Assembly: GCA_963765205.1 (NCBI GenBank)
Contig: CAVXVB010000002.1
Coordinates: 1 to 64,000 of the forward strand
Reading direction: 5' to 3'
Source: an uncultured Verrucomicrobiae bacterium
GTDB lineage: Bacteria > Verrucomicrobiota > Verrucomicrobiia > Opitutales > JABDGR01
DNA length: 64,000 nt
Shown one piece after another: positions 52,652 to 54,596 of the stretch (position 1 is its first letter; each line of letters starts with the position of its first letter). Position numbers and translations under genes: made by a program. The notes beneath the pieces were generated by a model, which made no database searches, had not been told where the DNA came from, and saw only the letters and a list, made by a program, of their open reading frames with translations.

Positions 52652-52699
52652 GCGCGTTTTTTGGAGACGGAAAAGAGGAACTCGCGCAGAGGCGCAGAG
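52652..52699 (+). repeat. Direct repeat copy 1 flanking the nucleotidyltransferase module
   Basis: 43/48 identical to 53442-53488. Confidence 0.75.
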
Positions 52700-52718
52700 C
52701 CGCAAAGAAAACCGAAAG

Positions 52719-53441: not shown

Positions 53442-53488
53442 GCGTGTTTTTGGAGGCGGAGAAGAGGAACTCGCGCAGAGCCGCAGAG
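53442..53488 (+). repeat. Direct repeat copy 2 flanking the nucleotidyltransferase module
   Basis: 43/48 identical to 52652-52699. Confidence 0.75.
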
Positions 53489-53555
53489 AAAGCGGAAAGA
53501 AGAAAGCGCTTTTTTGAGGGTTGCCGGAGTATGGGGGTGCATTAAGGCAAGCGCT

Positions 53556-54473
53556 CTATTTTTTCCTGAGAGCATAAATTGTAGCGATCACAAAAAGGAT
53601 TGCCATAAGGCCAATCCAGGGGGTAAGCTGCGAAATTGGTGTTGGCTCTGATATGAAGTTTGGCCCGGCTTTCGAGGAGACAGAAGTTGGAGGCGTGCTT
53701 GCATCAGTCGTCACTTGATTTGAGGAAACCATAGGTGTTGGCTGGGTATTACTGCTGTCTCTGGTGACGTTCAGTTCTTTCATCGCCGCCTCCGACCGTG
53801 CTAGTGCAACCGGATTAACAGGAGGATTTTGGCTTGGTTCATCCGAAGGCGGATCCATCGAGAAATTTTCGTAACCGGGCGGGGGCTTGATCGGTTCAGT
53901 CAAGAATTCCATTTTACCATCGGCAACCGGCCATGTTAATTCAACTGTCACACGCGTAGGTGCATCTTTGACCGGTAAGGAAAAATCACCAAAAATTGAT
54001 ACGTTTATTCCTCCCTTTTTAGCATCCAAATTAAATGCTGGCTTAACGTAAACACTGCTATCGAGCTTTGAAATGAAATCGTCGAATTCTGCTACGGGGA
54101 TGTCCACTGACTGGCAAATATTGTGAACTTGCTGATCACTGTGAACTACAGAAGGAAAATCTTAAAGTTGTATTGCCAGGGGATACTATTTTTACAATGC
54201 ATATTGAAAGTGCTGATATAGAAGTATTGGCTCAAAATCGGCTTTACCGGATCGATTTTATCAGTCCGATCATGACTCAAGATGCCGCAGCCCAGCAAGT
54301 CCCAAATAACGCCTTGGTCTCAAACCCGCGTCAAAAATTGCCTTGAGGTTGTCACTATTGCTGAAATCAACGGTGTATTGCGTGGGTGCATTTTCGCCCT
54401 CCACGACTGAACGCATAAGTGTTGCAGCTACGATGGCCGCAAATTTTAGCAGAGAATGTTTTGCCACATGCAT
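53556..54473 (-). pseudogene. Exported C-terminally anchored protein (305 aa) interrupted by an internal inversion
   Basis: ORFs 54270-54473 and 53556-54107 fuse into one stop-free frame when 54135-54292 is reverse-complemented. Confidence 0.85.
54127..54300. other. Inverted segment bounded by ACTTGCTG/CAGCAAGT inverted repeats
   Basis: IRs at 54127-54134 and 54293-54300. The inner 158 bp encodes the missing protein segment on the opposite strand. Confidence 0.85.
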
Positions 54474-54596
54474 ATTATTCGATTCAAATTAAATCTTTGT
54501 TTGCTCATAGGCAATAGCGACTAAACGGAAGAGGAATGGCTTTTTTAGGTTGCCGGGGGATGTGGGGAAGGGCTTACATCGAAAAGAATCTTGCCC

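Follow-up and report, generated by a model that had tools for sequence, protein, structure and literature searches.

The sequence analysed here is a 64-kb window, the whole stretch of 64,000 nucleotides, of contig CAVXVB010000002.1 in assembly GCA_963765205.1, which comes from an uncultured member of the Verrucomicrobiae (Opitutales; JABDGR01). Towards the right of this window a minus-strand gene is broken into two open reading frames (ORFs), and the stretch between them gives a protein-like translation on the plus strand. The stretch is bounded by ACTTGCTG (54127-54134) and CAGCAAGT (54293-54300), which are perfect reverse complements over 8 bp and can be extended outwards to 13 of 16 matching positions and not at all inwards; segment and repeats together span 174 bp. 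The positions given for the two ORFs, the repeats and their 13/16 extension in the original prediction were re-derived and all proved exact (Table 1). Reverse-complementing 54135-54292 by script yielded, as predicted, a single stop-free frame of 918 nt (305 codons) running from 54473 to 53556. The inversion is thus seen directly in the DNA: both of its junctions are precise, with zero bases gained or lost, and across the 305 codons the broken copy carries no further stop or frameshift. Judged from the restored frame (54473-53556) and from profile matches to both the flanks and the interior, the invertible segment does not extend beyond a single coding sequence. Inversion alters the product by introducing a premature stop, leaving ORFs of 67 and 183 aa, and in annotation the locus is best entered as a single, inverted gene instead of a pair of short ORFs. 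The GC content of the gene is 45% compared with 62% for the window, the drop being restricted to about 53450-54500.

Table 1. Positions of the parts of the broken gene in the 64-kb window.
Feature	Position	Strand	Description and basis
N-terminal coding part	54294..54473	-	Start codon, signal-like hydrophobic stretch, first 60 codons, conserved NLKA.FDAGLRP motif; 54297-54443 (-) matches profile positions 5-53 and aligns with the paralogue N-termini
Right inverted-repeat arm CAGCAAGT	54293..54300		Contigs of run X1 begin and terminate here, matching the mixture simulation
Invertible segment, 158 bp	54135..54292	+	Gene-breaking orientation in the assembly; profile positions 56-111
Left inverted-repeat arm ACTTGCTG	54127..54134		One X1 contig stops at 54134; the 174-nt X1 contig covers 54127-54300
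C-terminal coding part	53556..54128	-	Remaining ectodomain, PPPGYEN motif, Pro/Ser/Thr-rich linker, membrane helix, RKK tail, stop codon; 53559-54140 (-) matches profile positions 107-284, with 37% identity to the C8 paralogue
Truncated 67-aa ORF	54270..54473	-	Signal-like hydrophobic start; stop 7 codons past the right repeat
Leftover 183-aa ORF, GTG start	53556..54107	-	Without signal sequence; ends in membrane helix and RKK

The assembly of this genome (12 contigs, 4.02 Mb, 92% complete) encodes two paralogues of the broken gene, in open frames of 321 aa on contig C8 and 253 aa on contig C9, whose proteins are about 37-45% identical to the window copy. In both, the match to the middle piece lies directly upstream of the match to the C-terminal piece, on the same strand and within one open frame, and an alignment of the restored product with the paralogues shows unbroken similarity across both junctions. 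A first profile, built from the two paralogues and one database relative, was searched against 1.84 billion representatives and retrieved 177 clusters at E<=0.001 (91 at 1e-10 and 28 at 1e-30). The clusters are mostly 230-320 aa in length, and profile positions ~30-210 are matched in one stretch. A 50-sequence profile run against the window returned three consecutive pieces: the minus strand matches positions 5-53 and 107-284, and the plus strand matches positions 56-111 in between. Because only the middle piece changes strand and the relatives are colinear, the ancestral gene was colinear and the inversion in the window is derived. Homologues that lacked the internal segment had been named in the original prediction as the case that would count against the reconstruction; the homologues contain it, and the two paralogues and the family of 177 clusters provide full-length relatives colinear with the reconstructed protein. 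As judged by these sequence comparisons, the reconstruction by inversion is correct.

As predicted, the restored product begins with a hydrophobic helix, contains a Pro/Ser/Thr-rich linker and ends in a membrane helix followed by a basic tail; a folded ectodomain precedes the linker, as seen both in the family alignment and in a model of one paralogue. In the 50-sequence alignment the order of elements is a hydrophobic N-terminus, the motif NLKA.FDAGLRPW, an ectodomain of about 150 residues (about 180 aa when both motifs are counted in), the motif P.PPPGYE..S, the Pro/Ser/Thr-rich linker, the membrane helix and the basic tail, and the window pieces align along the full length of the paralogues and carry both motifs. 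Pfam contained no family matching the window pieces at E<=1; five of the six proteins scanned gave nothing, and the C8 paralogue (P0007) gave two weak matches below the cut-off (E 0.09 and 0.19). The C8 paralogue was modelled by AlphaFold2 from 50 sequences with a mean pLDDT of 85.8 and values mostly of 90-98 in the ectodomain blocks, an earlier model from 3 sequences having been poor (pLDDT 57.5). In the model a helix at the N-terminus (residues 2-21) precedes an alpha/beta ectodomain (~30-180), from which a disordered linker leads to the C-terminal helix (288-307). The stretch that is inverted maps onto the central beta-strands of this ectodomain and the beginning of its first long helix, and the model predicts that the broken form cannot fold. 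The best Foldseek match in the PDB had an E-value of 0.026, short of the threshold of E<=0.001, and the best score in a wide structural search (Z 5.7) fell inside the noise range stated for the tool. From the topology we infer that the product is an exposed, membrane-anchored protein.

The family is patchily distributed. A profile search recovered it in 3 of 401 genomes of the phylum, the present one included, and the C-terminal piece used as a single query against 40 relatives had no match beyond its own genome. A three-row alignment searched against genome contigs found one further relative, a Verrucomicrobia MAG, and against viral contigs none. In a collection of 5.8 billion proteins the C-terminal piece retrieved only the 183-aa ORF of the window, the C8 paralogue and a protein of 296 aa related to the latter. 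The intact-form protein was not found in that collection, which is weak evidence since the 55-aa middle piece is a short query.

All three copies of the gene in this genome occupy low-GC islets of ~0.9 kb (53556-54473 in the window, 45%; C8:349846-350769, 47%; C9:1036835-1037584, 44%) in a genome of 60-62% GC. They have no flanks in common, and likeness between them at the DNA level is confined to the stretch coding for PPPGYEN. Homologues from one MAG and two further genomes of the phylum likewise have a lower GC content than one or both of their flanks, and the family may be horizontally mobile or under an unusual compositional constraint. On both sides of the low-GC gene in the window lies a 26-nt direct repeat of 77% identity (TTTT.AGG.TTGCCGG..., 53512-53537 and 54541-54566), and no other copy of its downstream member was found in the genome; it could be the trace of a gene insertion, or chance. 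A purine-rich element of ~50 nt, 89-93% alike between copies, is found at 52658-52718 and 53447-53499, just downstream of two neighbouring minus-strand genes, with one partial further copy on C9; a contig of the public run X1, described below, joins across both window copies ('goes back 689').

The inverted repeats themselves were compared with chance expectation. Perfect 8-bp inverted pairs 20-400 nt apart occur on average 4.3 times per shuffled gene, with at least one such pair in 96% of 2000 shuffles. The 8-bp repeat alone is within chance expectation and, since a boundary of this length is to be expected in such a gene, the feature weighs little; what lies beyond chance is an inversion that restores a frame colinear with a protein family. 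The left arm is private to the window copy, where it reads Ala-Asp, one residue shorter, versus Glu in both paralogues and in the family consensus, and in the alignment no inverted repeat was found at the equivalent codons of the two paralogues. The octamer TGTGAACT is present twice, 19 nt apart, across the left junction (54122-54148). In the restored form TGTGAACT and its complement make a second 8-bp pair that overlaps the main one, so that 13 bases of the right site pair with two adjacent stretches of the left site. Overlapping pairs of this kind arose in 27 of 2000 mononucleotide shuffles, the feature having been spotted post hoc. Inspection of each site by eye for internal dyad symmetry revealed nothing convincing. 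A genome-wide search for other inverted pairs, which the original prediction had proposed, found that the 8-mer forms 9 such pairs within 3 kb of each other, about the number expected by chance, and no second site within 1 mismatch of either 16-mer arm was found anywhere in the genome.

These properties of the repeats suit an explanation in which the inversion happened once, between inverted repeats of 8 bp that were present by chance, through template switching at a replication fork or through break repair, the two alleles now coexisting in closely related strains with no programmed switching. Repeats at chance level, their absence from the paralogues and the lack of partner sites in the genome all favour such an event, and the two overlapping 8-bp matches of the left site to the right site (27/2000 shuffles) could trace templated homogenisation of the arms. 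We regard a single historic inversion as a serious contender, if somewhat short of an even chance.

Orientation was examined in public sequence runs (X1-X4), which were available as Logan contigs, not reads, at a depth of 2-8 and hence show the presence of an orientation, not proportions; X2-X4 cover the region in part, and the uncovered stretches are silent on orientation. A 302-nt contig of X3 (54150-54451, 0 differences) crosses the right junction in the broken orientation of the window. The left junction is crossed in the same orientation by a 151-nt contig of X2 (54112-54262), which is weak evidence, the flank side having only 23 letters against a 31-letter rule. The 183-aa protein was moreover called in identical form (P0004) on a separate 1977-nt Logan contig, a further sighting of the broken form. 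The intact orientation is found in X4, a soil metagenome from another study, in a 210-nt contig with 0 differences in which the segment follows 16 letters that are the reverse complement of 54301-54316 (16/16) and is thereby joined to the N-terminal part of the gene. The depth of X4 in the bin 54060-54143 is 1.59, equal to 37 covered letters at the contig depth of 3.6, and this fits a placement of the last 28 letters of the contig, which are unlisted, on 54107-54134, the second intact junction.

The locus is best covered in X1, also a soil metagenome, where the region is represented by three separate whole contigs covering 54003-54134, 54127-54300 (174 nt) and 54293-54495. In a k=31 de Bruijn simulation either orientation alone gave one unbroken unitig, and a mixture of the two gave unitigs ending at 54134, spanning 54127-54300 (174 nt) and starting at 54293, together with four 52-nt junction unitigs. 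The breaks in X1 are exactly those of the simulated mixture, and X1 therefore contains both orientations; none of the X1 rows listed is a 52-nt junction contig, and the mixture is read from the break pattern. A single base difference was found over the four runs (53363 in X4, depth 2.1), so that the populations are near-identical. Both forms are seen in otherwise identical environmental DNA, across three studies dating from 2018 to 2025. More generally, break points in public de Bruijn graph contigs can expose both states of an inverton without recourse to raw reads. JGI metagenome contigs contained no exact match to a 40-nt piece of the segment. Runs X3 and X5 are labelled with an organism name and not as metagenomes; the depth at the locus is only 2-3 there, and in both the bacterium makes up a minor share beside some other source of DNA.

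The original prediction had envisaged an assembly artefact should the intact orientation alone be found, and a fixed knockout should the inverted one alone be found. The inverted form is seen outside the assembly, in X3, weakly in X2 and on the 1977-nt contig, and the intact form is seen in X4, with the signature of a mixture in X1. With both orientations present in public runs, an assembly artefact and a fixed knockout can each be dismissed. An artefact in the broader sense, in which the genome is truly intact and the inverted form was made during library preparation, amplification or assembly, or as a chimera, had been raised with the original prediction, and amplification is known to produce chimeras with short inverted junctions. 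This explanation is already largely refuted by the independent occurrence of the inverted form in X3 (contig 54150-54451) and, on weak evidence, in X2, by the identical 183-aa gene call on the 1977-nt contig and by junctions that are precise to the base, and we consider it very improbable.

The intact-orientation contigs might instead derive from an additional, unbroken copy of the gene in a part of the genome that was not assembled, and an assembly that is 92% complete in 12 contigs could miss something. However, a search of the 4.02-Mb assembly did not recover the intact junction, the X4 contig has the segment attached at either end to the same flanks, branching of the flank contigs of X1 is confined to the edges of the inverted repeats, as expected for one locus in two states, and the two known paralogues are just ~37-45% identical in protein. 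A second copy is accordingly given very little credence, on a par with an artefact.

With one locus in two states, the question becomes whether the segment flipped once or does so recurrently. That all orientation data are metagenomic, where strain mixtures are usual, is in keeping with a single historic inversion, as is the absence of an invertase nearby. Set against this, the two forms are otherwise identical wherever they are covered (210-nt X4 contig, 0 differences), they appear in three studies from 2018 to 2025 and co-occur in one sample, and the broken copy has undergone no further decay. Template switching between short inverted repeats is documented as a cause of spacer inversion in coding DNA (PMC8604942), and the cases described in the available text of that survey resemble the present one in that the spacer between short inverted arms is inverted within a coding sequence; they are independent of any enzyme and can recur and revert. 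The yeast coding-gene examples given there have arms of >9 bp and spacers of 2-5 bp and change one or two residues, unlike the 8-bp arms, 158-bp spacer and knocked-out gene found here, although that geometry is typical of one survey and not a strict mechanistic limit (PMC8604942). We lean towards recurrent flipping, on the grounds that the forms are otherwise identical, span three studies, occur together in one sample and show no second lesion, with a geometry unlike that of the template-switch cases.

The original prediction had found no recombinase in the window, and this was borne out: matches to the Phage_integrase family on the same contig (C2) lie only at 78268, 119251 and 152242, all outside the 64-kb window, the nearest (C2:78268) about 24 kb off, and there is no Resolvase match on C2. 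The genome-wide search for invertases that had been suggested returned 16 Phage_integrase matches over the family cut-off and 2 Resolvase matches; one candidate, encoded on C8, is a serine recombinase of about 326 aa. With integrase and Resolvase matches present in the genome, an enzyme acting in trans is therefore possible.

We propose that the locus is an intragenic inverton of the premature-stop kind that flips recurrently, a reading to which we give somewhat better than an even chance. In one orientation a continuous 305-codon frame would encode a signal-anchored, single-pass membrane protein of a Verrucomicrobiota family for which there is no Pfam model. In the orientation of the assembly, translation would halt after 67 residues, and the central beta-sheet part would lie on the wrong strand; with this part of the ectodomain on the wrong strand and a stop so early, no anchored protein would be made. 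The flip would recur as phase variation, probably by recombination across the identical 8-bp core, and the agent would most likely be a recombinase encoded elsewhere in the genome, enzyme-free template switching being less likely. The biological sense of such an arrangement may be on/off control of an exposed protein. Of the ON/OFF switch originally predicted, what stands is a gene broken by an internal inversion between short inverted repeats, with a restored product that has full-length colinear homologues; the switching itself is held at the strength just given. Counting against a switch, the contigs are of low depth (2-8) and come from metagenomes in which a mixture of two strains would look alike. 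Also on that side, an 8-bp repeat is to be expected by chance and falls below the usual length of recombinase sites, it is missing from the paralogues, the genome has no look-alike sites and the window no recombinase; that the 5.8-billion-protein collection yielded no intact-form protein adds a weak argument.

A more far-reaching version of the proposal is that the 8-bp core truly suffices as a recombination site for a trans-acting recombinase that needs very little sequence, and that the low-GC family comprises individually switchable surface proteins of soil Verrucomicrobiota, the C8 paralogue having an 11-bp inverted repeat of its own. We think this improbable, and if it were true, programmed intragenic inversion would extend to free-living soil bacteria at sites too short for current finders. 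Inverton finders based on repeats may pass over repeats as short as 8 bases.

Two further sequence features were noted in the gene family. In the C8 paralogue (minus strand), GAATTATTTTA at gene positions 3-13 and its complement at 207-217 form a perfect inverted repeat of 11 bp around the start codon and signal sequence, and this pair is possibly the boundary of a second invertible segment, judging from the repeat itself; a repeat as long as 11 bp arose in 99 of 2000 shuffles. A Phage_integrase match (C8:346107-346544) lies 3.3 kb from this paralogue. In the window, a promoter-like pair of hexamers (TTCACA-17 nt-AATATT, 9/12, 54145-54117 on the minus strand) straddles the left junction just upstream of the GTG of the 183-aa ORF, and is best taken as a consensus match in AT-rich DNA, which is no evidence of expression.

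Among known invertible elements, the fimS switch of E. coli (FimB/FimE) and the hin/hix system of Salmonella flip promoters between genes, and the recombinase gene lies adjacent to or inside the element. The present locus is similar in that a short DNA segment between inverted repeats inverts and, as proposed here, switches a surface structure on or off. In contrast to those systems, it is a piece of coding sequence that inverts, there is no recombinase gene inside the 64-kb window, and no recognisable site motif is common to other sites in the genome. Because there is neither an adjacent recombinase nor a promoter flip, the locus does not fit the fim/hin type.

A closer match is provided by the intragenic invertons with premature stops reported for Bacteroides thetaiotaomicron BT3786, thiC and others in the PhaVa survey of long-read isolates from 2023 (bioRxiv 10.1101/2023.03.11.532203). 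In the available text of the same survey the number of intergenic invertons per genome is highest in Verrucomicrobia, a phylum represented there by Akkermansia alone (bioRxiv 10.1101/2023.03.11.532203). Like the intragenic invertons outlined in that text, the segment described here is confined to a single coding sequence and has inverted repeats at its borders; a full protein is encoded in one orientation, and in the other a premature stop leaves two ORFs. Sequence data contain both orientations, and there is no adjacent invertase. Unlike them, it is known from metagenome contigs and not from clonal long reads or PCR, its inverted repeats comprise only 8 perfect bases, its target family has no Pfam model, and its host is a soil Verrucomicrobiota of the Opitutales type and not a gut Bacteroides or a sequenced isolate. 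Intragenic invertons have so far come mostly from gut bacteria and sequenced isolates, and the locus stands apart from those known in its very short repeat, its soil host and its uncharacterised target family. If it is truly switching, the same trick is at work in a soil lineage of the Verrucomicrobiota, its target is a patchily distributed family of membrane proteins, and repeats of just 8 bases are sufficient for it.
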